In this document: in pieces, positions 10,590 to 63,635 of the stretch
How the letters are laid out: each line of letters begins with the position of its first letter
Numbering within the stretch: the first letter of the stretch is position 1
Source: a phage
Sequence record: PZ452579.1
Length of the DNA: 64,000 nt
Reading direction: 5' to 3' (one strand)
Notes under the pieces: model-generated
Seen by the model: only the letters and a program-made list of their open reading frames with translations
Told to the model about the DNA's origin: nothing
Database searches by the model: none
Translations under genes and position numbers: made by a program

Positions 10590-10778
10590 TTATCGAAAAT
10601 CTGCTTCGAAAACTTTCTCGTCATTAACAAATGCTTTAACTAATGCGTTGTTCACTTCAGCAAGTTGTACCGCAACCCACTCGATTTCTTCGCGATCACC
10701 TGATAACATGATATCTTTAGTGAACATATTATCATTTTTAAACCAGCCAATAAAAGTAACTTTAGTTAATTTGCTCAT
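10590..10778 (-). CDS. dmd: Dmd, discriminator of mRNA degradation (antitoxin against RnlA/LsoA)
   Basis: MSKLTKVTFIGWFKNDNMFTKDIM... resembles T4 Dmd (60 aa); start moved to homologous Met. Confidence 0.8.
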   Translation of the reverse strand: MSKLTKVTFIGWFKNDNMFTKDIMLSGDREEIEWVAVQLAEVNNALVKAFVNDEKVFEADFR

Positions 10779-11092
10779 ATTTCCTCGCAAAATGCCCATT
10801 CAGCGTGATAAACTGTAGCGCCTTTAGTATCATTCATTTGAACTACGTCTACCGGAGAAATTACTCGATAGAGACGTGGTTCACCTCCATAAGAGCGTGC
10901 TGCTCGTCCTGCATAAATCTTTGCTAAACCGATATCTTCAGTAAAGAATACACGATCCAAGTTTTTCTTACGTCCAGTTTCAGACAGAACTCCTGTTTCC
11001 TCAGGAGGACAAAGCATGTTTTCGATGTTAGCTGAACTACTTGAACCGTGATAAAAAATCTTAAATTCTGCTTTACAATCGATGGTTTTCAT
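10775..11092 (-). CDS. Hypothetical protein
   Basis: 105-aa ORF; early-promoter cassette immediately upstream. Confidence 0.5.
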   Translation of the reverse strand: MKTIDCKAEFKIFYHGSSSSANIENMLCPPEETGVLSETGRKKNLDRVFFTEDIGLAKIYAGRAARSYGGEPRLYRVISPVDVVQMNDTKGATVYHAEWAFCEEI

Positions 11093-11098
11093 TTTGTT

Positions 11099-11147
11099 CT
11101 CCAGTAGTTGATAGGTCTATAATAACACAACTACTGGAGAAGTAAAC
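11099..11147 (-). promoter_or_regulatory. Early-promoter/inverted-repeat cassette (PeSL-like)
   Basis: Minus strand GTTTAC (-35), 12-bp perfect inverted repeat CTCCAGTAGTTG / CAACTACTGGAG around TGTTATTATAGACCTAT; 36 bp identical to 52932..52968. Confidence 0.6.
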
Positions 11148-11522
11148 TTAAAAACGTAATTTAGATATATCTGCGTTGATTTCGTTTTGGTTTGCATCGT
11201 ATGCAATTAAACGAACCGCTTTAGATGGGTCATTCAATGCATAGAAATGATGGAACATTGCTCGAACGATATCACCATTTACGAGTTCTACTTGGATAGG
11301 AGAACCTTTTTCGAGTTGGAAATGTTCATAAGCTTTGATGGTTCGTAGATAATCAAGTTTTTGATTTCCGGCTCCAACTATTTGTACGATACGTTTGCCC
11401 ATGTTTTCCATACGAGATACAATAGTTTTAGGAGCAAGAATAACGTAGGTTGCCAGTGGAGAAACTACTTCAACAGTTGTGTTTTCGGTGATTGCAGTAA
11501 AAATTGCTTGAGACATATTCAT
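11148..11522 (-). CDS. Hypothetical protein
   Basis: 124-aa ORF. Confidence 0.5.
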   Translation of the reverse strand: MNMSQAIFTAITENTTVEVVSPLATYVILAPKTIVSRMENMGKRIVQIVGAGNQKLDYLRTIKAYEHFQLEKGSPIQVELVNGDIVRAMFHHFYALNDPSKAVRLIAYDANQNEINADISKLRF

Positions 11523-11588
11523 AATGTTTTCCTCTTGGTTGGTGTAAGTTCATCATATCATGCCTAGAGGAAGATGTAAACACCGAAA

Positions 11589-11610
11589 GGAGACCGAAGT
11601 CTCCTTTTTA
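11589..11610 (-). terminator. C(UUCG)G hairpin immediately 3' of gene 41 (possibly bidirectional)
   Basis: GGAGAC-CGAA-GTCTCC palindrome followed by T5 on plus strand; abuts gene 41 stop. Confidence 0.5.
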
Positions 11611-27181: not shown

Positions 27182-27373
27182 TTATTCGTAGAAGTCGGTA
27201 ACTGTCCATGCGGTATTGCGATTAGACATTATTTTATTATACTCGTCTTTAAAAGCAGATTTGAGCATTTGTTCAGTAACAATATGTTCTTCACCTGAAA
27301 ACGTATTGGTCAAAACATATTTTTTAATTTCAGGGACAACGAGAAGATGTTGGCCGGTTGAATACTCCGCCAT
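27182..27373 (-). CDS. Hypothetical protein (45.2 position)
   Basis: 63-aa ORF. Confidence 0.45.
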   Translation of the reverse strand: MAEYSTGQHLLVVPEIKKYVLTNTFSGEEHIVTEQMLKSAFKDEYNKIMSNRNTAWTVTDFYE

Positions 27374-27393
27374 TATAAATCTCCGAGATTAAA

Positions 27394-27401
27394 GCAATAT
27401 A
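27394..27401 (+). promoter_or_regulatory. Plus-strand late promoter TATAAATA upstream of the HNH endonuclease gene
   Basis: Exact tataaata about 50 nt upstream of ATG at 27451. Confidence 0.5.
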
Positions 27402-27450
27402 AATAGGTTTATCAATTTATCTGTTGCTGTATCAAATAAGGATTTAGTAA

Positions 27451-28167
27451 ATGAATTATAACTCAATATACGAAAAGCTTATCACCAATGCTAAATCAAG
27501 AAGTTTAGATGGTTATACAGAACGTCATCACATTATACCACAATGTTTAGGTGGAAGTGATGATGCTTTAAACTTAGTAGACTTAACACCGGAAGAACAT
27601 TATTTGGCACATCAACTGTTGGTAAAAATCCATCCAGATAATGCCTCTTTAATATATGCCGCTCGTATGATGACCATATCATCTCCTAAAGCAGATAGAA
27701 GCAAAAACAAATTATTTGGATGGCTTCGACGTAAGAATCAAGAAGTTCAAAAGAACAAAGAATTCACTGCTGAAACCCGTAAGAAAATGTCTGAGTCTGC
27801 AAAAAATAAACCAAAGATTACATGTCCACACTGCGGTTTAACCGGCACTGAAGGAAACATGAGACGTTGGCATTTTGATAACTGTAAACAAGGCCCTACG
27901 CCTAAAATAGTAAAACTTGATCAAGAAACAAAAGATAAAATAATTAAAACCATGGCCACGAAAATTTGGAAAGAAGATTCTTGCCCGTTTTGTGGCTTAA
28001 CTACTAAGTTATCGGCGTTAAAGCCACATATAAAATTCTGTAAATCAAATCCTAACAGAAAGAAAAAAGAGGACAAGAAAATTAAATGTCCTCATTGCGA
28101 TAAAATAGGGATCCCTGCTAATATGCATCGTTGGCATTTTGATAACTGTAAACATAAGCCTCATTAA
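27451..28167 (+). mobile_element. Free-standing HNH homing endonuclease with three C-terminal zinc-binding repeats
   Basis: 238 aa; ERHHIIPQCLGGSDDALNLVDLTPEEHYLAHQ (HNH); three CxxC...RWHFDNCK-type modules; only sizeable plus-strand gene in this block. Confidence 0.8.
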
Positions 28168-29852
28168 GAGGCTTTCATTACAGTAAATCGTCCAACTTTG
28201 CTCATTTGCAAATGTTGTCCATAAGCTTGTGGGTCATGGTCTCTGTGACTAATTATAAACACGTTTGCATCGGTTAGAGAGTTAAGAATTGTTGAAATAG
28301 CTTTAATACCTTCAGAATCAGTCGCGGAATCCATGACTTCGTCCATAATTAATGTATTGATTCTAACACCAGAGACCTTTTCAGCAATATCTCGCCATGT
28401 AAACAACAATGCGATATCGATACGTGCCTTTTCACCTTGACTAAACGAAGCATAACTGAATTCTTCACGACCACGTGATTTTATAGATTCATTGAATTCT
28501 TCGTCAATAGAAAACACGTAATCAGCTTCCATGATTTTAAGATAATGGTTAATCTGCTTATTGAACAAAGGCACATATTTTTTAATGATAGCACCTTTAA
28601 TACCAGAATCTTTTAACATATCTGTGATAATACCACGATGGTATTTTTCAAGAACGATATCCGATTTTGTTTTAATGATTTTATCAAGTTCTTTTTGAAG
28701 CAAAGCTATCTCATCGGCATGGTCGATAAATTCCGCCGAGGCTTGTTCTATTGCCGCTTTAACTTTCTTAGCTTTATCAATAGTGGCAATCATTGCTTGT
28801 TTCTTGGTACGAATATCAGATGCAAGGTCCTGTTTAGTCTTAACATTAGCTCTATATTCGTCCACTAGGACACTCAGATTATCTCTGTGACATGTAAGTT
28901 GCTCGAATGAGTGATTACATTCGTGAAGCTTATCGGTAATCTTAGAGACAATAGGATCACCCTGGTGTAACTGTGATGCACAAGTAGGACATGTACCGCC
29001 ATCATGATACATCTTAATAACTTTGTTATATGAGTCAATTTTAGATTTAATCAAGAATGCTTCTTGTCCTATCTTGTTGAATGCCTCAGTAGGGTCTTCA
29101 TCAAGAACGATATTAAGTAGTCGCTCATTAGCTTCTTCGATTTCTGCTTTTAATGAACGAGCTTCTTTGGCTAGGTCGTCATACATATTCTGTAGACGCG
29201 CTACATTATCACCAGATAATTTCTTTTGACGTTCGATATTCTCGTTATAAATCTTAATTTGTTGGATAACACCATCTTTCTTGGCATCAAGAACTTGTCC
29301 CTGAGAATTAAGTTCGCGAACTTGAGACTTATTGATTTTATCCATTTCAGCGAGTGTGCCGACTTCTAAAAGGTCTTCGACAAGTTTTCTACGAGCAGGG
29401 GTGCTAAGAGCCATGAAAGGGGTATACCCTGCCGTCCCAAGCACAACGATTTGTTTAAAAGACGCGTATGACATTCCGATGCTACGTTCAAATTCTTCTT
29501 GGAAGTCACGACTGCTGGCAGATTCATCAAGACGAACGCCGTCAACGGAGATTTCGAAAATATTGGGCTTTTGACCACGTCTAATGAAGTATTTTTTATC
29601 ATCGAATTCCATCCAAAGCTCAACTAAGAGCTCTTTCTTGTTCGTGCTATTAATGATTTGCCCTTTCTTAACATCACGAAATGGTTTACCGAAAAGTCCG
29701 AAAGTAATGGCTTCTAACATCGTAGATTTACCGCCGCCATTTTTACCGGTGATTAATGTCTTTTGGACTTTATCTAATTGGATATCAATAGGATTCCCAC
29801 CTACCGACATGATGTTTTGATAACGAACACGATTTAATTTAAATGATTTCAT
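28164..29852 (-). CDS. 46: Recombination nuclease subunit gp46 (Rad50/SbcC-like)
   Basis: 562 aa; Walker A GKNGGGKSTMLEAI, coiled-coil middle, signature/Walker B at C-terminus. Confidence 0.92.
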   Translation of the reverse strand: MKSFKLNRVRYQNIMSVGGNPIDIQLDKVQKTLITGKNGGGKSTMLEAITFGLFGKPFRDVKKGQIINSTNKKELLVELWMEFDDKKYFIRRGQKPNIFEISVDGVRLDESASSRDFQEEFERSIGMSYASFKQIVVLGTAGYTPFMALSTPARRKLVEDLLEVGTLAEMDKINKSQVRELNSQGQVLDAKKDGVIQQIKIYNENIERQKKLSGDNVARLQNMYDDLAKEARSLKAEIEEANERLLNIVLDEDPTEAFNKIGQEAFLIKSKIDSYNKVIKMYHDGGTCPTCASQLHQGDPIVSKITDKLHECNHSFEQLTCHRDNLSVLVDEYRANVKTKQDLASDIRTKKQAMIATIDKAKKVKAAIEQASAEFIDHADEIALLQKELDKIIKTKSDIVLEKYHRGIITDMLKDSGIKGAIIKKYVPLFNKQINHYLKIMEADYVFSIDEEFNESIKSRGREEFSYASFSQGEKARIDIALLFTWRDIAEKVSGVRINTLIMDEVMDSATDSEGIKAISTILNSLTDANVFIISHRDHDPQAYGQHLQMSKVGRFTVMKAS

Positions 29853-33792: not shown

Positions 33793-33812
33793 ATTATTTT
33801 CCTCGGTTATTT

Positions 33813-33855
33813 TATTATCCAACGAGAGAATTATACTCATCTCTCAAGAGTTTGT
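33813..33855 (-). promoter_or_regulatory. Early-promoter/inverted-repeat cassette (GAGAGA/TCTCTC type)
   Basis: Near-identical to 63361..63405 except a compensatory arm change; minus strand TTTACA ... TATAAT. Confidence 0.5.
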
Positions 33856-35395
33856 ATACTATTTTTTAAGCATGAAAAGTAAGTAATTTGTATCACGTGG
33901 AGTAATATCAACACCCATATCAAAGATGCCTTTATAGATTGGGTATTTGTTTTCGGTTGTATCGAAGCTGAAACTATTTCCATCACAACTAACAGTAATA
34001 GCATCTGTTAAAATGTCATACTCAATCCTAACAATTGAATCCCCAATTTTAACGTCGAGGTGTTTTTTGAATTTGATAAAATCTAATTCTTGGGCCATGA
34101 TATTTTCCTCATTTTAAGACGATAGGAAGATAATAACATGTCTTCCTATCGTTGTACATTATTAACCGAACTTTTTAGCGCCTTTCCAGCCTTCATACAT
34201 AACTGCGCAAGTCAATAGCACAGCATGTTGGCATTCTTTGTATTTGTAAATCCAGAACCAGCGTAAGAAGTCTTCGTCCTCAACACCGTTGAGTTTCATA
34301 TTGGCAAAGAATTCGGCACGTTCTTCACGAAGCTTTTGCGATAACATAGATTCAGGATTCATTTTGTGTTCCACGCCCCATTTTCATCGATGAACTTAAT
34401 CCAGTCATTTACAGACCATTTAGTTGTATCACCCTTTGGATTAACATTTAAAGTATATAATCCCTGCTTAAAAAGCATTCGTTTGATATTCATAATTTCC
34501 TCAACTGTAACGATAACATTCGTTAGCTTTACGTTTGGCTTCAGTATGAGAAGTATTATAATCATAATCTTCTTTACTGTAAACATCTTTTTTCAACTTA
34601 CGAACTTCTTTGCGGAGTTGTCGATTCATTTCATTCTTGACTTCAGAATCAACGCCTTTCATACGTTTCCATTTATCTGAGCGGAAAATGTTTTCAACCA
34701 TGTCTTTGTGGCTAACACCGTCAGGAGCTTTACGCTTACCAAAATAGTCGTAATCGCGAACTTTCAAATCTTTACGACGATATGTTTTACCCATAAGTAC
34801 CTCAGAGGTTGATTGATACAATGCGTTTGATAAAATTCACTTCACTTACTGAAAGGTCTTTAAGACCGATTGATTCTAAACGCTGAGTAAGCGTCAACAT
34901 CGGGATATAGTCCCAATGTGTTTTAGACGTTTGATAAGTACGGACGCCATTAGCAATTTCAACATGCAAATCGGAAATGGTAACGAATACCGGTCGCTCG
35001 TCATTAACTTTAAGGGTTAGAACAACTTTCTTTGAATCTAAACTAATCATGACTTAATTTCCTTCGCAATTGAACAGAAGATACCACGGTCACAAAGCAT
35101 TTCGCCAATTTCTGGATATTTGATTGAACGGTACCAAACATCCAGGCTTGAAACTCTGGTTATCTGTACTGCATTACCGTTGACAGAATAGTACTGGTCA
35201 ACCTTAATTTCTTTATCTTCAATTGTCATTTTTATTTTCCTCTATAGTAGATGGTTTAATCTTAACACATCTATTGAGGATGTAAACTGTTTTATGAAAA
35301 TATTTTTGATTTGAGAGTGGCACAAGGAGATAGTGAAGTGAAGATTCCAATGGATTATATTAGAAATGGGATAAAGAAGACCAGGCGGCACCTGG

Positions 35396-44319: not shown

Positions 44320-44922
44320 GTTTTACCTCCAGTAGTTGATAGGTCTATAATAACATAACCATAGACCTTGTAAACAACTAAAAGAAACTTTTTTCGGTAT
44401 TTTTTCCACTGAACCAAACCGACTTCGGTATTTTCTGTAATTTTTCAGATTTAAGTTTCTCTTCCTGTTCTTTCTTATATACACCCTTGTCGTACTGGAG
44501 CATCTCTATGGCATTCTTTTGCAAACGATCTAAGGTAATTAAGGCTTTAGTTTTTCCTTTCAAGGAAGAGTCCTGGCGAACCTCCTCGCTATATTGCATC
44601 GTAGAACTAACCATACGATGAGCATAGAGTTCGACTGCGGCTTTAATTTTTTGCATAAAATCCATAACATATCCTCTTTGATTTGTACATCATTATTTTT
44701 AAATATTTCTATGCCCTCAGTAGGTTCCTGGTGTCCTTCTTTGAGGTAAGCCATATGATTATTCATCTTTATGGCTTTTGTTACCTCAGAACTTCCTATA
44801 AGCTTATTTCAGTAAAGTAACTTCCGAGATTTCTTCCCAACCATCTTTATCAGTTGAAATAAAATCTGCTACATAAAGAGCCGTACGTAATGATACATTG
44901 CGAAGACGAGATACGTTAGCCT

Positions 44923-45774: not shown

Positions 45775-45832
45775 ATTTACTCATTTCGTTTCGATAGGTC
45801 TATAATAACATGTTTAAAGCAAAAGTAAACAA

Positions 45833-46051
45833 TTATTTGCGACGAGATTTTTTGGTAAGAGGTTGAAAGAACACTGCTTTACCAGCAGGAGTCAAAGTGA
45901 CTCGTAATGCATTACCGATTCCCAAGGATGCTTTAACAAGACCTTTAGATTTCAGTTCACCGAATGCTTGACGTTGGTCTGCATCACGAGTGTTAACCAT
46001 AAGACCTTTATCACCAGCTTCACGAATCATTTCTAACATTTTGGTTTTCAT
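45833..46051 (-). CDS. Small basic protein
   Basis: 72-aa ORF. Confidence 0.45.
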   Translation of the reverse strand: MKTKMLEMIREAGDKGLMVNTRDADQRQAFGELKSKGLVKASLGIGNALRVTLTPAGKAVFFQPLTKKSRRK

Positions 46052-46138
46052 TTTGTTTTCTCCTCTTGTTTTGATAGGTCTATAATAACATATCCTAAAA
46101 GCATGTACACTACTTTTTAAAAATATTTTGACCCCCTA

Positions 46139-46156
46139 AAGGGCCCGAAGGCCCTT
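46139..46156 (-). terminator. C(UUCG)G hairpin 3' of the nucleotidyltransferase gene
   Basis: AAGGGCC-CGAA-GGCCCTT; directly after stop at 46158. Confidence 0.5.
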
Positions 46157-48445: not shown

Positions 48446-48910
48446 ACTACCGATTGTGTTTTAAATGTTGATAAAGTTCTTCAACTTGTTTAGGGTCCAA
48501 AACAATTAAGTCATTTTCTTGGCGAAGATAAATCCATCCCTTATCCCCAGGGCCATTTTTACAAAACATCACTGCCGCCATATCATCATCTTCAGCGCTT
48601 TCAGGTAAAAGTTCAAGTACACCGTCTTCAGATTTTCCAGTATAATCGTAAAGCATAATATCCTCACATAATCTCGTTAACATACATTTGCAATTCAGTG
48701 TGCGTATCAGCCATCTTTTTCATTGCCTTATTGATATCGATATCACCGTCTTCACACCCGTGGGCATTTTCCCAATCGGATACAGCGTTAGCGTACTCTT
48801 CAATCAAAAACATTAACTTAGAAATTTTTTCTTTACGTGACATAACGTTCTCCTCTAGTAAGTAAGGTCTACTATAACACAACCTGAGGAGAAGTAAACT
48901 GCTAAATGCA

Positions 48911-48940
48911 AAAAAGCCCCAACCTTTCGGAAGGGGCTTT
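48911..48940 (-). terminator. Intrinsic terminator (GAAA-loop hairpin plus U-run), repeat copy A
   Basis: AAAAAAGCCCCAACCTTTCGGAAGGGGC; 28 bp identical to copy at 49533..49562. Confidence 0.65.
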
Positions 48941-48942
48941 GA

Positions 48943-49500
48943 TTAGTTTTTGTAATATCGTAAAGGGTTGATATGGAATGAAAGCATTGCGCGTGGAATA
49001 GGACGACTCAAAAGACTCTTAAGTTTCCAACCACAGTAAACACGCAGATAAAATGTAATACCACCAACCTTAAGATAAGGTATAGCAGCGAATAATCCCC
49101 ATGCAGACTCGTTCCAAACTAAAAGATATCCATGATGTGCCGGATCAGGAGATCCAGATTTAGTTTCGGCGTTGCCTTTATAGTGCCATTCTGATGAAGC
49201 TTCGCGACCTAAAACATGATACGAAAAATTATATGCTTTGTTGCGCCATAGCCAAGCTACGCGTTGAGCATATTTACCTATAACAGGAATTTTACGTATT
49301 TTAGACCAACGTTCAACATGGCCGTGGTCACCATCGATAGGATTATCGTAAGTCATCATCCAGTCAAAGCCATAAGGTAGTTTACCGGTTTTTTCACTAT
49401 GGAATGGAACTACAAATGGTGCTAGAATAATTGCTAAAATCGCTGCGATCCAATCTATAGGAACAAGAACAACCCAACTTATGTATTTTAAAAATTTCAT
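48943..49500 (-). CDS. Membrane protein
   Basis: 185-aa ORF with N-terminal TM segments; flanked by identical terminator repeats. Confidence 0.55.
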   Translation of the reverse strand: MKFLKYISWVVLVPIDWIAAILAIILAPFVVPFHSEKTGKLPYGFDWMMTYDNPIDGDHGHVERWSKIRKIPVIGKYAQRVAWLWRNKAYNFSYHVLGREASSEWHYKGNAETKSGSPDPAHHGYLLVWNESAWGLFAAIPYLKVGGITFYLRVYCGWKLKSLLSRPIPRAMLSFHINPLRYYKN

Positions 49501-49525
49501 ATATCCTCTCTTAGTTTACAAGGAT

Positions 49526-49533
49526 ATTTATAC
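49526..49533 (-). promoter_or_regulatory. Late promoter TATAAATA
   Basis: Plus tatttata about 26 nt upstream of ATG at 49500, immediately after terminator copy B. Confidence 0.55.
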
Positions 49534-49562
49534 AAAAAGCCCCAACCTTTCGGAAGGGGCAG
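49533..49562 (-). terminator. Intrinsic terminator (GAAA-loop hairpin plus U-run), repeat copy B
   Basis: CAAAAAGCCCCAACCTTTCGGAAGGGGC directly 3' of the ORF ending at 49568. Confidence 0.65.
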
Positions 49563-52450: not shown

Positions 52451-52909
52451 CTAGATTTTAATCACTGCTTTAGAAGCTTTTCCTGGTAGTCGTTTACTGT
52501 TAATAATAGCCATTCTGCATTGAAGAGTCTTCATTTTGAATGCTGGATTTTCGCGACAAACTGTAAGTCCTAACCAAAGATTTCCATCAGTTATTTCTAA
52601 ACGGCCTGGGCGATATTCGACACCTTCGACAAAATCTTCATCAACATCTGGACGTGCCGGCATTGATAAAAATTCTGCAACTTCTTTAACATGATTTTTT
52701 ACTTTACGAAATAATTCAAAAACGTAATTCTCATCTATTTCTCTCTGGATGGCACGATCTAAGAGATGTTGAGAATACTTGATATGAAAGCCTGGTAGTC
52801 CAAGAGACTTTGCAGCATCTTTTATACAGGCATTGATTTGACGAAACTCCGTTTCAAAGATTCGACGGAGTTTATTGCGACGGATAAAAACTTCCGAATT
52901 GATAGTCAT
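52451..52909 (-). CDS. regB: Endoribonuclease RegB
   Basis: 152 aa; MTINSEVFIRRNKLRR... consistent with T4 RegB size and sequence as remembered. Confidence 0.75.
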   Translation of the reverse strand: MTINSEVFIRRNKLRRIFETEFRQINACIKDAAKSLGLPGFHIKYSQHLLDRAIQREIDENYVFELFRKVKNHVKEVAEFLSMPARPDVDEDFVEGVEYRPGRLEITDGNLWLGLTVCRENPAFKMKTLQCRMAIINSKRLPGKASKAVIKI

Positions 52910-52918
52910 TTTTATTTC

Positions 52919-52968
52919 TCCTCTAGTTGACAGGTCTATAATAACACAACTACTGGAGAAGTAAACTA
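52919..52968 (-). promoter_or_regulatory. Early-promoter/inverted-repeat cassette, second copy of the 11099..11147 element
   Basis: AGGTCTATAATAACACAACTACTGGAGAAGTAAACT identical to 11113..11148. Confidence 0.6.
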
Positions 52969-54879: not shown

Positions 54880-55052
54880 TTAGTTTCTCTTTTAGGTTGG
54901 GGCCATTCCGTGGCACATGTTAGGTCCTTCGACTCGCTATGTAAACCCATTACCGCATTGCGCTCGACCTTATTACAGGTTGGAAAAGGTACATCACTCA
55001 GAGGACTCGACGTTCATGAGGAGAGGTTGCGTTTCCCTTTATTAGGCAAGAA

Positions 55053-55382
55053 TTATACTCTAGGCTTTTGAGCTTGTTTGGTATTGGATTCCCATGCGGC
55101 TTTGGTAATTTTGTTAGCGGCATAACCAAAGGCATTAGATAGAACACCTTTAGAGTTGAATACATCCAATCCAATAAGTACACCGGCTGTGTTAAATTTA
55201 GGAGCAAAGTACGCATTAGTTTTAGAAAGAGCTTTTTTCAATTCAGGGTCTTGAACCAAGCCATCAAAAACGCCTTTACTATTTACTTTATATGTTACTT
55301 TGGGATTTTTACCTTCTTCGATAGCAGCTTTCTGTTCCGCAGATAATGTAACTTCAGTGATAAACTCTTGATACGTTTTCAT
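55053..55382 (-). CDS. Internal head protein (IP) with capsid targeting sequence
   Basis: N-terminus MKTYQEFITE matches T4 IP CTS (MKTYQEFIAE). Confidence 0.7.
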   Translation of the reverse strand: MKTYQEFITEVTLSAEQKAAIEEGKNPKVTYKVNSKGVFDGLVQDPELKKALSKTNAYFAPKFNTAGVLIGLDVFNSKGVLSNAFGYAANKITKAAWESNTKQAQKPRV

Positions 55383-55407
55383 TTTGTTCCTATTGTTTTA
55401 ATTTATG

Positions 55408-55722
55408 TTATTCTTTAGGGAAGTTTTTAGAGTATGCGTCATAAAGTTTATTACCGATGCGACGGAAGACTTTAGCTGCAAAACGGTTTTCAGGGTTTTT
55501 AATCATGATTTGCATCATGTAAGTTCCTGCATCCGAAAGAGCTTCTTCGTAGTACCCATTAATTTCTTTAAGAGTCCTACGTTTACCACCAGGACCATCA
55601 ACAGTAATTTTCCATTTACCTGTAGAAGTGCGGCTCGGTGGCTCAACTTGTTCAATCCAAATATAACCACCTTCAACGCGTTGGTTGGCGGATTCTGCAA
55701 TAAATTCTTTATATGTTTTCAT
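55408..55722 (-). CDS. Internal head protein (IP) with capsid targeting sequence
   Basis: N-terminus MKTYKEFIAE. Confidence 0.7.
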   Translation of the reverse strand: MKTYKEFIAESANQRVEGGYIWIEQVEPPSRTSTGKWKITVDGPGGKRRTLKEINGYYEEALSDAGTYMMQIMIKNPENRFAAKVFRRIGNKLYDAYSKNFPKE

Positions 55723-55786
55723 TTTTTGTTTCCTTGTTTGTTTTGATAGAGTAATTATACCATATTAATACTTAAGCGTAAACAAT

Positions 55787-56047
55787 TTAAGCTTTACCGC
55801 CAGAAATAATTCCGAAGTTGTTAAAATCGTATCCAATATCGTCAACATCTACTTTAGGACTTACTACAACATAAGCAATTTCACTACGTTTTGCATAGGT
55901 GTTGATTTCTTTACCATCGCCACCTAAGAAAGAATACCCATTACGTTTTAATGAGCCAAAGTCTTCCGCATCACCAATGAAAGCTTTAACTTTAAATTTG
56001 GGGTCTTTGGCATCTGCTTCAGCTATAAATTCTTGATACATTTTCAT
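55787..56047 (-). CDS. Internal head protein (IP) with capsid targeting sequence
   Basis: N-terminus MKMYQEFIAEA. Confidence 0.7.
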   Translation of the reverse strand: MKMYQEFIAEADAKDPKFKVKAFIGDAEDFGSLKRNGYSFLGGDGKEINTYAKRSEIAYVVVSPKVDVDDIGYDFNNFGIISGGKA

Positions 56048-56053
56048 TTTTCC

Positions 56054-56467
56054 TTAGTAAATTGATTTACCATAGTATTTGTACCAAGTCGGACGTTGAG
56101 CAATTTTTTCATCTAAGCGTGCTTGACTTATCGCAATGGACGCTTCGGACGGGACGTAATTATTACGAAATTCTACAGGGATGTCGGAAATATCCTGGAC
56201 AGTCGTGTCCTTGATTTTGAAACCACGTTTCAAACATTCGGCGATTAGCTCGATTTGTCGTAAACGTAAAAATTCAAGTTTGTCGTAAAAGAATGTTACG
56301 TGACCTGTGCCTAAGATAAATGTTGGAGAGATTTTAAAATCCTTTACACGTTTACCGTTTTGAACATGTTTACGGACTGCACCAAATACGCGTGGTAATT
56401 CACGATACTCAGCCATAAGATGTTGGTCGGTCAGTTCAGAAACAAGTGTTAAATTGATACGGGTCAT
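56054..56467 (-). CDS. denV: Endonuclease V (pyrimidine dimer DNA glycosylase) DenV
   Basis: [35 protein letters not shown]... near-identical to T4 DenV; start at homologous Met. Confidence 0.92.
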
Positions 56468-56477
56468 AATTTCCTCC

Positions 56478-56525
56478 AAGTAGTTGATGAATGTATAGTA
56501 TCAAAACCCTTGGAGGAAGTAAACA
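56478..56525 (-). promoter_or_regulatory. Early-promoter/inverted-repeat cassette upstream of denV
   Basis: Minus strand GTTTAC, inverted repeat CCTCCAAG / CTTGGAGG around TACTATACA. Confidence 0.55.
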
Positions 56526-56807
56526 CTATTTTTCTGAAGCGCCTGAAATATATTTTTCAAGTCGTTGCTTCATTAGCGAGCCGTTCTTAGCGATTTCTTC
56601 CGGTTTATCGCACATACGTAACAAGGCTTCAAGCTTAGCGATATCGCTGGTACGTTCAAATTTGCGAGTATCTATCTTACTAGCAAGTTCAGAAATACGT
56701 GCTAATAGACTTTCGGCTTCAACCAAAGCTGCACCTAGCTTAGTTGCAAATGTGTCAGTAGCTTCGTTAAGAATAGATTCTGATAAAAATTCACTATATG
56801 TTTTCAT
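56526..56807 (-). CDS. Internal head protein (IP) with capsid targeting sequence
   Basis: [10 protein letters not shown] from ATG at 56807; its ATG overlaps the e stop codon (ATGA). Confidence 0.65.
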
Positions 56808-57292
56808 ATATACGCTTTCCAAGTTCCTGTTTTAAATGTTGAGATTACGCGTTTCGCGCGATTAGGTGTCTGACGATACCATTTAGATTGGGCTAGATTT
56901 ACTGCCGCCTCGTCCCAACGTTTCTGTTGAAGCATACGAAGAGAATTAGTAAAACCGGCGACGCCTGCTACACCCATTTGGAAGACCATATTGACCAATG
57001 CACATCGACGAACCGCATCTAAAGAATCATATACCGGTTTAAGTTTAGCATTACCCAAGATTCCGCGAACGGCTTTATCAACGTCTTCATTAAATAGCTT
57101 TTCAGCCTCATCAAGGGTAATTGTACCGTTGCATTTACGTCCGATCATTCTGTCAAGTTCAGCTTTAGCTACGGCTAAAGACGGGTTCTTTGTTACTAAA
57201 TGGCCTATGCCAATCGTCCAAAAGCCTTCAGTGTCTTTGTATAAAGTCAGTCTAAGACCTTCGTCATTACGAAGCATTTCAAATATATTCAT
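56804..57292 (-). CDS. e: Lysozyme (endolysin) e
   Basis: [32 protein letters not shown]... near-identical to T4 lysozyme; start at homologous Met. Confidence 0.95.
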
Positions 57293-61632: not shown

Positions 61633-61730
61633 TTTCTACATTCCTTAATAAAGTTTTCGATTGTTTCATTTTCACGTTTAGCTAGGAGTTCATTATAACT
61701 AATCATTTGAGAAGCGTAAACAGCATAAAT

Positions 61731-62153
61731 TCAGTTCAGGCTTTTGCATCTTATCTCCTTAACGAATTCCATGGCTTCGTCATATTCATACTTTTTAACA
61801 GCTTCATCATACTGAGCTTGGGCTTTTGCACATTGAATTTTCCATTCGCGTACTCGAGCTCTATAATGACGTCCTTGGTACCAATATCCCACCCAATTAA
61901 TAGGCATTAATAAAAATGGCACAATAAACGACCCGGCTATAATAAGTAAAAACACTGCATCAGACGATATAACTTCACTAGAATCTAAAACAGCTCCTAT
62001 AATCATAAGGATTAAAAATGCTAAAGCTAAAATAGGGCCAAATAGTACTTCGTTTGGGATTAATTTACGTTTGTATTCGTATGCCCAGGGCTTAATTGGC
62101 ATGTACAGGGTTGGCTTTGACATATTCTCTACATTCCATAATAAATTGCTCAA
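61731..62153 (-). CDS. Membrane protein
   Basis: 140 aa, two TM. Confidence 0.5.
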   Translation of the reverse strand: MSNLLWNVENMSKPTLYMPIKPWAYEYKRKLIPNEVLFGPILALAFLILMIIGAVLDSSEVISSDAVFLLIIAGSFIVPFLLMPINWVGYWYQGRHYRARVREWKIQCAKAQAQYDEAVKKYEYDEAMEFVKEIRCKSLN

Positions 62154-63337: not shown

Positions 63338-63360
63338 ATTATTACCTTTCAATTGGTGGT

Positions 63361-63405
63361 TTATTATCCAACGAGAGCATTATACTCTGCTCTCAAGAGT
63401 TTGTA
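63361..63405 (-). promoter_or_regulatory. Early-promoter/inverted-repeat cassette (GAGAGC/GCTCTC type)
   Basis: Copy of 33813..33855 with compensatory arm substitution. Confidence 0.5.
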
Positions 63406-63407
63406 AA

Positions 63408-63635
63408 TTATTTTTTAATCAAATTGACATAAAACTTGGCGTCTTCGGGGTGCATGCCTTCGCAGTATTCTTCAACCATGAACTTCTTAATAGCTTCATA
63501 AGGACCACTCAGATTAAGCTCAGTTGTCCAGAACTTGGAATCTTGGGCTGAATCGATACGAACTTCAGGGTGGCGGTTGCGAATAACTTCTTCAGTGTAT
63601 TCATAATCAACGACATCAATACTAACTTTAGCCAT
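63408..63635 (-). CDS. Hypothetical small protein
   Basis: 75-aa ORF. Confidence 0.45.
   Translation of the reverse strand: MAKVSIDVVDYEYTEEVIRNRHPEVRIDSAQDSKFWTTELNLSGPYEAIKKFMVEEYCEGMHPEDAKFYVNLIKK

Follow-up and report, generated by a model that had tools for sequence, protein, structure and literature searches.

A stretch of phage DNA (64,000 nucleotides of sequence record PZ452579.1, hereafter the window) contains short, near-identical repeats dispersed between its genes, and one 36-mer among them is present in two exact copies located 41.8 kb apart. These repeats raise the questions of what they encode, how a perfect duplicate came to lie at two distant loci, and what role is played by the inverted repeats found in about half of them. 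The features described below suggest that the repeats are, very probably, sigma70-dependent early-promoter and ribosome-binding-site cassettes of the T4 type and of the promoter-early stem-loop (PeSL) kind, that they recombine via their conserved cores, and that a patch of one was recently copied into another.

Predicted promoter cassettes between early genes

The window is approximately 98% identical to many Mosigvirus genomes (RB69-like, T4-type coliphages), which places it with the RB69-type phages and not with the RB49 type suggested in an earlier note on this DNA. No record identical to the window was found in the phage collection. Nearly all genes of the window are on the minus strand, and the genes downstream of the cassettes are minus-strand genes of the early region, including regB, denV, nrdC.x, imm and others. 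Pfam searches with the cassette-flanking ORF040c, ORF041c, ORF102c and ORF117c homologues gave no family match, and Rfam likewise gave none when all of the window was scanned with gathering thresholds.

The exact copies of the 36-mer AGGTCTATAATAACACAACTACTGGAGAAGTAAACT are located at 11113-11148 and 52932-52967 (0 expected); the perfect repeat is thus as first described, except that the end of the second copy had been placed at 52968, one nucleotide too far. No third match with 3 or fewer mismatches is present in the window, and 100 shuffles gave 0 matches. The close variants reported near 44330, 45795, 46068 and 48862 are real; they are positioned at 44341, 45796, 46076 and 48865, correspond to repeat families D2/D3, and have the core AGGTCTATAATAACA in common. 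On the minus strand, all six copies have the layout, position and strand originally assigned to them, reading GTTTAC, a 17-nt spacer, TATTAT or TATAGT, and then AGACCT, with GTGTAC at 46110 as the exception to the -35 sequence. The motif search called for in the earlier note indicates that this layout extends well beyond the six sites. The pattern GTTTAC-N16-18-TANNAT is matched 18 times in the window against 0.94 expected, with 18 of 18 matches on the minus strand, and a simple scan identifies 24 intergenic cassettes, each with a Shine-Dalgarno (SD) sequence and an ATG. A generic sigma70 scan found promoter-like sites without enrichment (71 found, 65 expected). One perfect GTTTAC-N18-TATAAT sequence (P61721) was rejected as a cassette because it falls within what is left of an e.3 homologue after a partial deletion, instead of between genes, and it is probably not a true intergenic promoter. 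At 61721-61733, this e.3 homologue lacks about 250 bp relative to RB69, Shf125875, ZQ3 and EP02SG, and LF82-7 has the same deletion.

Each cassette occupies the short gap between two minus-strand genes and contains, in order, the stop codon of the upstream gene, GTTTAC (-35), a 17-18-nt spacer, TAnnAT (-10), the conserved start region AGACCTATCAA, an SD and an ATG. In the 24 cassettes the SD and ATG are located 25-40 nt downstream of the -10. The sequence hallmarks of T4-type early promoters are present: TGT before the -10, an AT-rich stretch upstream of the -35, the GTTTAC box, and the spacing between the boxes. The composite PeSL layout (stop codon, promoter, stem-loop, SD and start codon) is found in P11147 and in approximately 12 of the 24 cassettes. 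In P11147, GTTTAC directly adjoins the stop codon of the upstream gene, and the cassette ends with GGAG, 6 nt and the ATG. The 5'UTR AGACCTATCAACTACTGGAG is identical in P44375 and P11147, while P45830 and P46110 share the core ATGTTATTATAGACCTATC. Small genes are bracketed by cassettes, for example the ORF041c homologue by P11581 and P11147 and the ORF102c homologue by P46110 and P45830. The coordinates of the cassettes discussed here are given in Table 1.

Table 1. Positions of cassettes, cassette parts and associated hairpins in the window.
Feature	Position	Strand	Description
Cassette P11147	11093..11147	-	Whole 55-nt gap between RB69ORF041c homologue (11148-11522) and RB69ORF040c homologue (10775-11092)
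P11147 parts	11142-11147; 11119-11124; 11090-11092	-	-35 GTTTAC; -10 TATTAT; ATG
P11147 arms	11128-11139; 11099-11110	-	5' arm CTCCAGTAGTTG; 3' arm CAACTACTGGAG, including SD GGAG 11099-11102
Cassette P52966 (regB promoter)	52910..52966	-	Second exact 36-mer copy; regB ATG 52907-52909
P52966 parts	52961-52966; 52938-52943	-	-35; -10 TATTAT
P52966 arms	52947-52958; 52918-52929	-	CTCCAGTAGTTG; CAACTAGAGGAG
Minimal conversion patch	52941..52954	-	AG 52953-52954 and T 52941 differ from all other Mosigvirus regB promoters examined
Cassette P44375	44320..44375	-	Upstream of nrdC.8 homologue; stem AGGTCTATGGT/ATTATAGACCT, 11 bp, two G-U
Cassette P45830	45763..45830	-	Upstream of nrdC.10 homologue; no convincing stem
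Terminator hairpin, then P46110	46052..46156	-	Hairpin GGGCCTTCGGGCCC + T-run (~46130-46156); -35 GTGTAC; upstream of RB69ORF102c homologue (45833-46051)
Terminator hairpin, then cassette P48899	48844..48933	-	Hairpin GCCCCTTCCGAAAGGTTGGGGCTTTTT (48905-48933); anti-SD arm CTCCTC pairs with GAGGAG
Second copy of terminator hairpin	49535..49560	-	GCCCCTTCCGAAAGGTTGGGGCTTTTT
Terminator hairpin, then P11581	11523..11609	-	Hairpin GGAGACTTCGGTCTCC + TTT (~11586-11609); -35 11576-11581; anti-SD arm TTCCTCT pairs with AGAGGAA; upstream of ORF041c homologue
Cassette P48447	48390..48447	-	Perfect 10-13-bp stem GGTAGGACTA/TAGTCCTACC around -10 TATAGT; family D1; RNA fold -20.6 kcal/mol, z = -4.8
Cassette P56524	56468..56524	-	Upstream of denV homologue; anti-SD arm TTCCTCCAAG pairs with CTTGGAGGAA; RNA fold -19.1 kcal/mol, z = -4.2
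Cassette P59538	59481..59538	-	Stem TAGGATTA/TAGTCCTA

Promoter activity and start sites are predicted here from the sequence, and the prediction agrees with published work on RB69. Nolan et al. (2006) predicted 58 early promoters in RB69 (PMC1524935, Additional file 3), and the RB69 orthologues of all six sites named in the earlier note are already among them, in line with its promoter reading. In that list, Pe:20537, 20971, 53683 and 55018 are the orthologues of P11147, P11581, P44375 and P45830, respectively, and Pe:55296, 57689, 58138 and 61376 are those of P46110, P48447, P48899 and P52966 (PMC1524935). The T4 regB gene has also been reported to possess a typical early promoter (PMC3014915). 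The cassettes of the window are therefore the same sites, by orthology, as the RB69 early promoters of Nolan et al., who make no mention of inverted repeats, hairpins or recombination (PMC1524935).

The PeSL was defined for RB49/phi1 (Arbiol et al. 2010, PMC2839356), and later work applied the concept to T4/PST (Comeau et al. 2014, PMC4122927) and KVP40/nt-1; the RB69 group was outside the analysis in these papers. The likeness to PeSLs proposed in the earlier note is borne out by the arrangement described for RB49/phi1, as in both cases an intergenic unit presents a stop codon in an AT-rich stretch, a sigma70-type -35/-10 promoter, a stem-loop, an SD and an ATG in the same order (PMC2839356). 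The stem-loop is likewise mostly found between the boxes or overlapping the -10, small accessory genes are bracketed, and hybrid cassettes are found where a close relative lacks the gene. RB49/phi1 are Krischviruses, however, with a TTGACA -35 and polyG/polyC stems, whereas the Mosigvirus window has GTTTAC and AT-rich, cassette-specific stems. In the window, furthermore, the 3' arm is often the SD itself and a terminator-like tail is absent. Further traits ascribed to PeSLs are a concentration in hyperplastic regions, an association with insertions, deletions and replacements among close relatives, and the formation of encapsidated minicircles when neighbouring cassettes recombine. The T4/PST PeSLs share the promoter consensus TTTACW-N17-TAYWAT (PMC4122927), their AGNA-loop-TCNT stems resemble the TAGGACTA/TAGTCCTA class of the window, and a T4/PST-like separate stem-loop is located just upstream of the promoter at P48899, P46110 and P11581. 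The T4/PST paper, in a figure legend, locates the stems directly upstream of the promoter, whereas the selected stems found by the present scan in the window and in T4 enclose the -10.

Stems enclosing the -10 box

The inverted repeat of P11147 is perfect over 12-14 bp. Its spacer CTCCAGTAGTTG is perfectly complementary to the 5'UTR segment CAACTACTGGAG, the SD is within the 3' arm, and the RNA fold has an energy of -21.5 kcal/mol (z = -5.7). A 2-nt internal mismatch divides the stem of P52966 into 6+6 bp (z = -3.2), and that of P48899 consists of 6+3 bp. Folds of single cassettes gave z-scores from -3.2 to -5.7 in five of six cases, the sixth, P44375, having a z-score of -1.9. An inverted repeat had been described at each copy of the motif; it is present at four of the six sites and weak or absent at 45830 and 46110. 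Approximately half of the 24 cassettes possess a strong stem, and the rest, including P45830 and P46110, have no meaningful one. In the stemmed cassettes the spacer can pair with the 5'UTR of the same cassette to form a hairpin of 7-14 bp, and because of this pairing the -10 and the predicted start are located inside the hairpin loop. An anti-SD sequence directly after the -35 serves as the 5' arm in 7 of the 24. The arm classes (anti-SD/SD, TAGGACTA/TAGTCCTA, AGGTCTAT/ATAGACCT and GAGAGC/GCTCTC) are mutually unrelated.

The pairing between spacer and 5'UTR has been probed by comparing each cassette with the others. Spacers pair with their own 5'UTR with a mean energy of -9.6 kcal/mol and with the 5'UTRs of other cassettes with a mean of -6.9 kcal/mol (permutation p ~5e-5, n = 24). 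Own pairing also exceeds cross pairing in RB69 (25 cassettes) and T4 (16 cassettes), again with p ~5e-5. Since the window, RB69 and T4 all show this signal, it characterizes T-even early promoters in general.

The regB promoter permits the same comparison across phages. A 12-13-bp hairpin is maintained there with lineage-specific arms in five T4-like lineages (CTCCTCTAGTTG/CAACTAGAGGAG; TCCTCTTGACTG/CAGTTAAGAGGA; TCTCCTCTTTATG/CATAAAGAGGAGA; TCTCCTGTAAGT/ACTTACAGGAGA; and, in lineage L026, a nested 7+7-bp pair, GGGCCAT/ATGGCCC). Each lineage's regB spacer pairs best with its own 5'UTR, with a mean over the five lineages of -17.6 kcal/mol for own pairings versus -10.2 kcal/mol for cross pairings. 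RNAalifold on a MAFFT alignment of nine regB cassettes recovered the 7-bp anti-SD/SD core alone, since indels shift the arms out of register; the arms were judged instead from per-lineage folds and the own-versus-cross matrix. Taken together, the own-versus-cross pairing, the z-scores and the compensatory regB arms demonstrate that the stem-loops are selected structures and not chance complementarity.

The same architecture, with the -10 inside a hairpin, was also observed in T4 (L013, 36478-85058) and in distant T4-like contigs (L014-L029, L063-L078). Examples of the arms are TTCCTCTTGACT/AGTTAAGAGGAG at T4 regB and GGTGGGGCTAT/ATAGTCCCATC in more distant contigs. No mention of this architecture of T4-like early promoters was found in the reviews searched.

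Conversion and recombination at the cassettes

The origin of the perfect duplicate can be traced at the regB promoter. In six other Mosigviruses, as well as in Av-05 and p000v, this promoter reads CTCCTCTAGTTG...TACTAT, and CTCCTCTAGTTG is the perfect complement of the regB 3' arm CAACTAGAGGAG. CTCCAGTAGTTG...TATTAT is found at this position in the window only, a change of 3 nucleotides within 14 nt, and in an alignment of Av-05, p000v, RB69 and P11147 all three window-specific changes equal the P11147 state. The maximal tract identical between P52966 and P11147 is the 36-mer itself. Furthermore, none of the 140 phage records matching the 111-nt stretch around the regB promoter is 99% or more identical to it. 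The ancestral regB stem of 12 bp loses 2 bp to the patch, with a fold energy of -15.8 kcal/mol for the patched form versus -22.6 kcal/mol for the ancestral one, and the ancestral P52966 stem and the P11147 stem are a compensatory double change apart. The alignment indicates that a patch of 14-36 nt was recently copied from P11147, the ORF040c promoter, into P52966, in this lineage alone, and the 36-mer duplicate would be perfect because this phage copied the promoter patch. An assembly or polishing error at the repeat could in principle produce the same patch.

A related pair of cassettes, 29.5 kb apart at 33811-33872 and 63360-63421, shows 90% identity over 62 nt, and a compensatory change distinguishes the stem of one (GAGAGA/TCTCTC) from that of the other (GAGAGC/GCTCTC). 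At the 33859 locus, LF82-7 has the 63408-type version of the cassette, which suggests a second conversion between dispersed cassettes.

Comparison of flanking gene content across relatives, as had been proposed, revealed hybrid cassettes where ORF041c or ORF102c is lost or where genes are gained. ORF041c is absent from LF82-1 and QL01, which contain a single hybrid cassette with a P11581-like upstream half and a P11147-like downstream half. Similarly, LF82-7 lacks ORF102c and has a single cassette made up of the upstream half of P46110 and the downstream half of P45830, with the crossover within the shared ATGTTATTATAGACCTATC; in ZQ3, EP02SG and O157 typing phage 6 (O157tp6), the ORF102c position holds a different gene. 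At P59538, ZQ3 contains an extra 261 bp comprising one gene and one cassette, with the junction at the -35. The three hybrid cassettes in relatives (LF82-1; LF82-7/ZQ3 at P46110/P45830; ZQ3 at P59538) and the conversion patch of the window indicate that recombination occurs inside cassettes. The conserved cores would serve as short homologies, and recombination from core to core would delete, insert or swap the bracketed genes.

The earlier note had proposed the cassettes as sites of module shuffling, and a statistical association with breakpoints was sought using local BLAST chains against RB69, Shf125875, ZQ3, LF82-7, EP02SG and O157tp6 over 39.4-64 kb. There are 26 clustered breakpoints relative to these six relatives, and 9 of the 26 are within 45 nt of a cassette, compared with 2.4 expected at random positions (p ~3e-4). 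In contrast, a junction-level Fisher test, which compares cassette junctions (breakpoint at 8 of 15) with other junctions (13 of 39), is not significant (odds ratio 2.3, p = 0.15), and consequently much of the enrichment reflects gene boundaries in general. The proposal is supported by the hybrids, the conversion patch and the comparison with random positions, and not significantly by the comparison with other gene junctions.

Recombination in the window is also not confined to promoters. A 594-bp insertion that contains a DUF7338 gene (185 aa, 48943-49500) is flanked by the two GCCCCTTCCGAAAGGTTGGGGCTTTTT terminator hairpin copies (48905-49560); LF82-7 has it as well, but RB69, ZQ3, EP02SG and O157tp6 do not. 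This placement indicates that the insertion recombined at the duplicated terminator hairpins and not at promoters.

Several other differences from relatives were observed. An 806-bp segment (27368-28175), absent from RB69, lies between the gp45.2 and gp46 homologues and contains a 238-aa ORF on the opposite strand (27451-28167, +) with an HNH motif and two CPHC...WHFDNCK modules, which form a direct repeat (27814-27890 / 28078-28154). This ORF looks like a free-standing homing endonuclease insertion. In the internal-head-protein region (55053-56811), four adjacent small genes have a common 5' end (family D7, reverse complement of ATGAAAAC...), and this block is swapped among relatives with breakpoints at 54919/54983, 55693, 55798 and 56017/56047. 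At 10597-10598 the window lacks 203 bp that RB69 has (gp61.4 homologue), and this junction is approximately 20 nt upstream of the -35 of cassette P10576.

Possible roles of the stems

The function of the stems has been considered by predicting the folds of two kinds of transcript. For 12 of the 24 cassettes, the minimum-energy fold of the read-through RNA, which contains both arms, has every SD base paired, while in RNAs from the cassette's own promoter (start approximately 7 nt after the -10) the SD is paired in approximately 1 of 24, with fold energies of 0 to -3 kcal/mol. The predictions thus give the features of a sequestering hairpin, with the SD paired in upstream RNA and the predicted start between the arms. 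Anti-SD tetramers are present in 7 of 24 spacers versus a background of 7.5% (p = 0.0014), and at regB a hairpin with an early promoter inside has been kept by compensatory change in at least five lineages. These results point, tentatively, to SD sequestration in read-through RNA as the most likely function of the stems. Read-through RNA from upstream genes would carry both arms and fold, hiding the SD in about half of the cassettes, and RNA initiated at the cassette's own promoter would lack the 5' arm and have an open 5'UTR. In this manner, the hairpin would make translation of the downstream gene dependent on that gene's early promoter. The weakened regB stem of the window would, on this model, make regB translation from read-through RNA leakier. 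SD sequestration is not the whole story, however, since stems of the TAGGACTA/TAGTCCTA class do not reach the SD.

A precedent is known in T4, where genes e, soc, 49 and I-TevI have SD-hiding hairpins with an internal late promoter (PMC3014915). As proposed for the cassettes, the SD is hidden in the long transcripts from upstream, which contain both arms, and initiation within the hairpin gives translatable transcripts without the 5' arm. The internal promoter of the T4 genes is late and delays expression, whereas that of the cassettes is early and is predicted to restrict expression to the early burst. It is conceivable, if still speculative, that T4-like phages generally place many early promoters inside a hairpin whose arms are the spacer, often anti-SD, and the 5'UTR with the SD; read-through RNA, delayed-early or middle, would then be translationally silent and protected from cleavage by RegB at GGAG, and RNA from the own promoter alone would be translated.

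The PeSL papers assign a different role to the stem-loops, namely that they are terminators or attenuators of upstream transcription that insulate each gene. One G/C-rich RB49 stem-loop cut lacZ expression as strongly as the T1 rrnB terminator (PMC2839356), and the cassette stems are likewise intergenic and stable (-14.7 to -21.6 kcal/mol). However, no T-run follows any cassette stem, the loops are 6-17 nt long, and a terminator scan flags 0 cassette stems. Canonical terminators, with a GC stem, a tetraloop and a T-run, are instead separate elements just upstream of some promoters (P48899, P46110 and P11581; Table 1). Where the arms are of the anti-SD class, 6-8 nt separate the end of the 3' arm from the ATG. 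Termination is considered an unlikely role for these stems.

The inverted repeats may also act in DNA, where a hairpin or cruciform at the -10 would tune melting or create cleavage sites that start recombination, with RNA folding being incidental. The complementarity is symmetric between the strands. Duplex energies showed no strand asymmetry (12 versus 12 cassettes; means of -9.60 kcal/mol for sense and -9.51 kcal/mol for antisense), and G-U pairs were not in significant excess over A-C pseudo-pairs (17 versus 13 in 41 distinct helices). Due to this symmetry, a DNA-level role fits these tests equally well. Recombination junctions map between the -35 and -10 or within the -10 core, and in RB49 one minicircle crossover occurred in the loop of a stem-loop (PMC2839356). 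The crossovers are, however, equally explained by the 18-24 nt over which the -10 cores are simply identical, and a number of natural stems have G-T positions, which would be left mismatched in a DNA cruciform. Overall, a DNA-level function is considered improbable.

It might also be argued that the cassettes are ordinary strong promoters that resemble each other through a long shared consensus, and that the inverted repeats and the perfect duplicate are coincidental. The T4-type early consensus is unusually long, with an UP element, GTTTAC, a GT-rich extended -10 and a C-rich start region (PMC1524935), and half of the cassettes lack a stem. This explanation is very unlikely given the excess of own over cross pairing in three genomes (p ~5e-5), the lineage-specific and compensatory arms of the regB hairpin, the match of 3 of 3 window-specific regB changes to P11147, and the hybrid cassettes in relatives. 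Finally, the palindromes could be operators through which a dimeric DNA-binding regulator turns early promoters off; this idea is suggested by their centring on the -10, a classic repressor position, and by the incompletely understood shut-off of T4 early promoters (PMC3014915). It was rejected as extremely unlikely because the arms are wholly different among cassettes (CTCCAGTAGTTG, TAGGACTA, AGGTCTAT, GAGAGC, CCTCCAAG) and differ between lineages at the same gene yet stay complementary, so that pairing and not a recognition sequence common to one protein is conserved.

For annotation, the reading of the repeats as PeSL-like early promoters means that they should be labelled as early promoters and ribosome-binding sites and not as mobile elements or new RNA genes. 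The promoters were predicted previously and the PeSL idea has been published; the conversion patch and the conserved pairing between spacer and SD are new. In the window, two promoters separated by 41.8 kb offer a clear case of patch conversion, and its relatives add three cases in which genes were lost, gained or swapped at junctions that fall within promoter cassettes, which brings the RB69 group into the published account of PeSLs. Judged by the statistics, cassettes are less closely tied to breakpoints than the single examples suggest. The pairing of the spacer with its own SD, which is also present in T4, leads to the testable hypothesis that translation of early genes may be tied to their own promoters. 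If true, the promoter within a hairpin would be the early-gene counterpart of the control exerted by late promoters within hairpins at e, soc, 49 and I-TevI.
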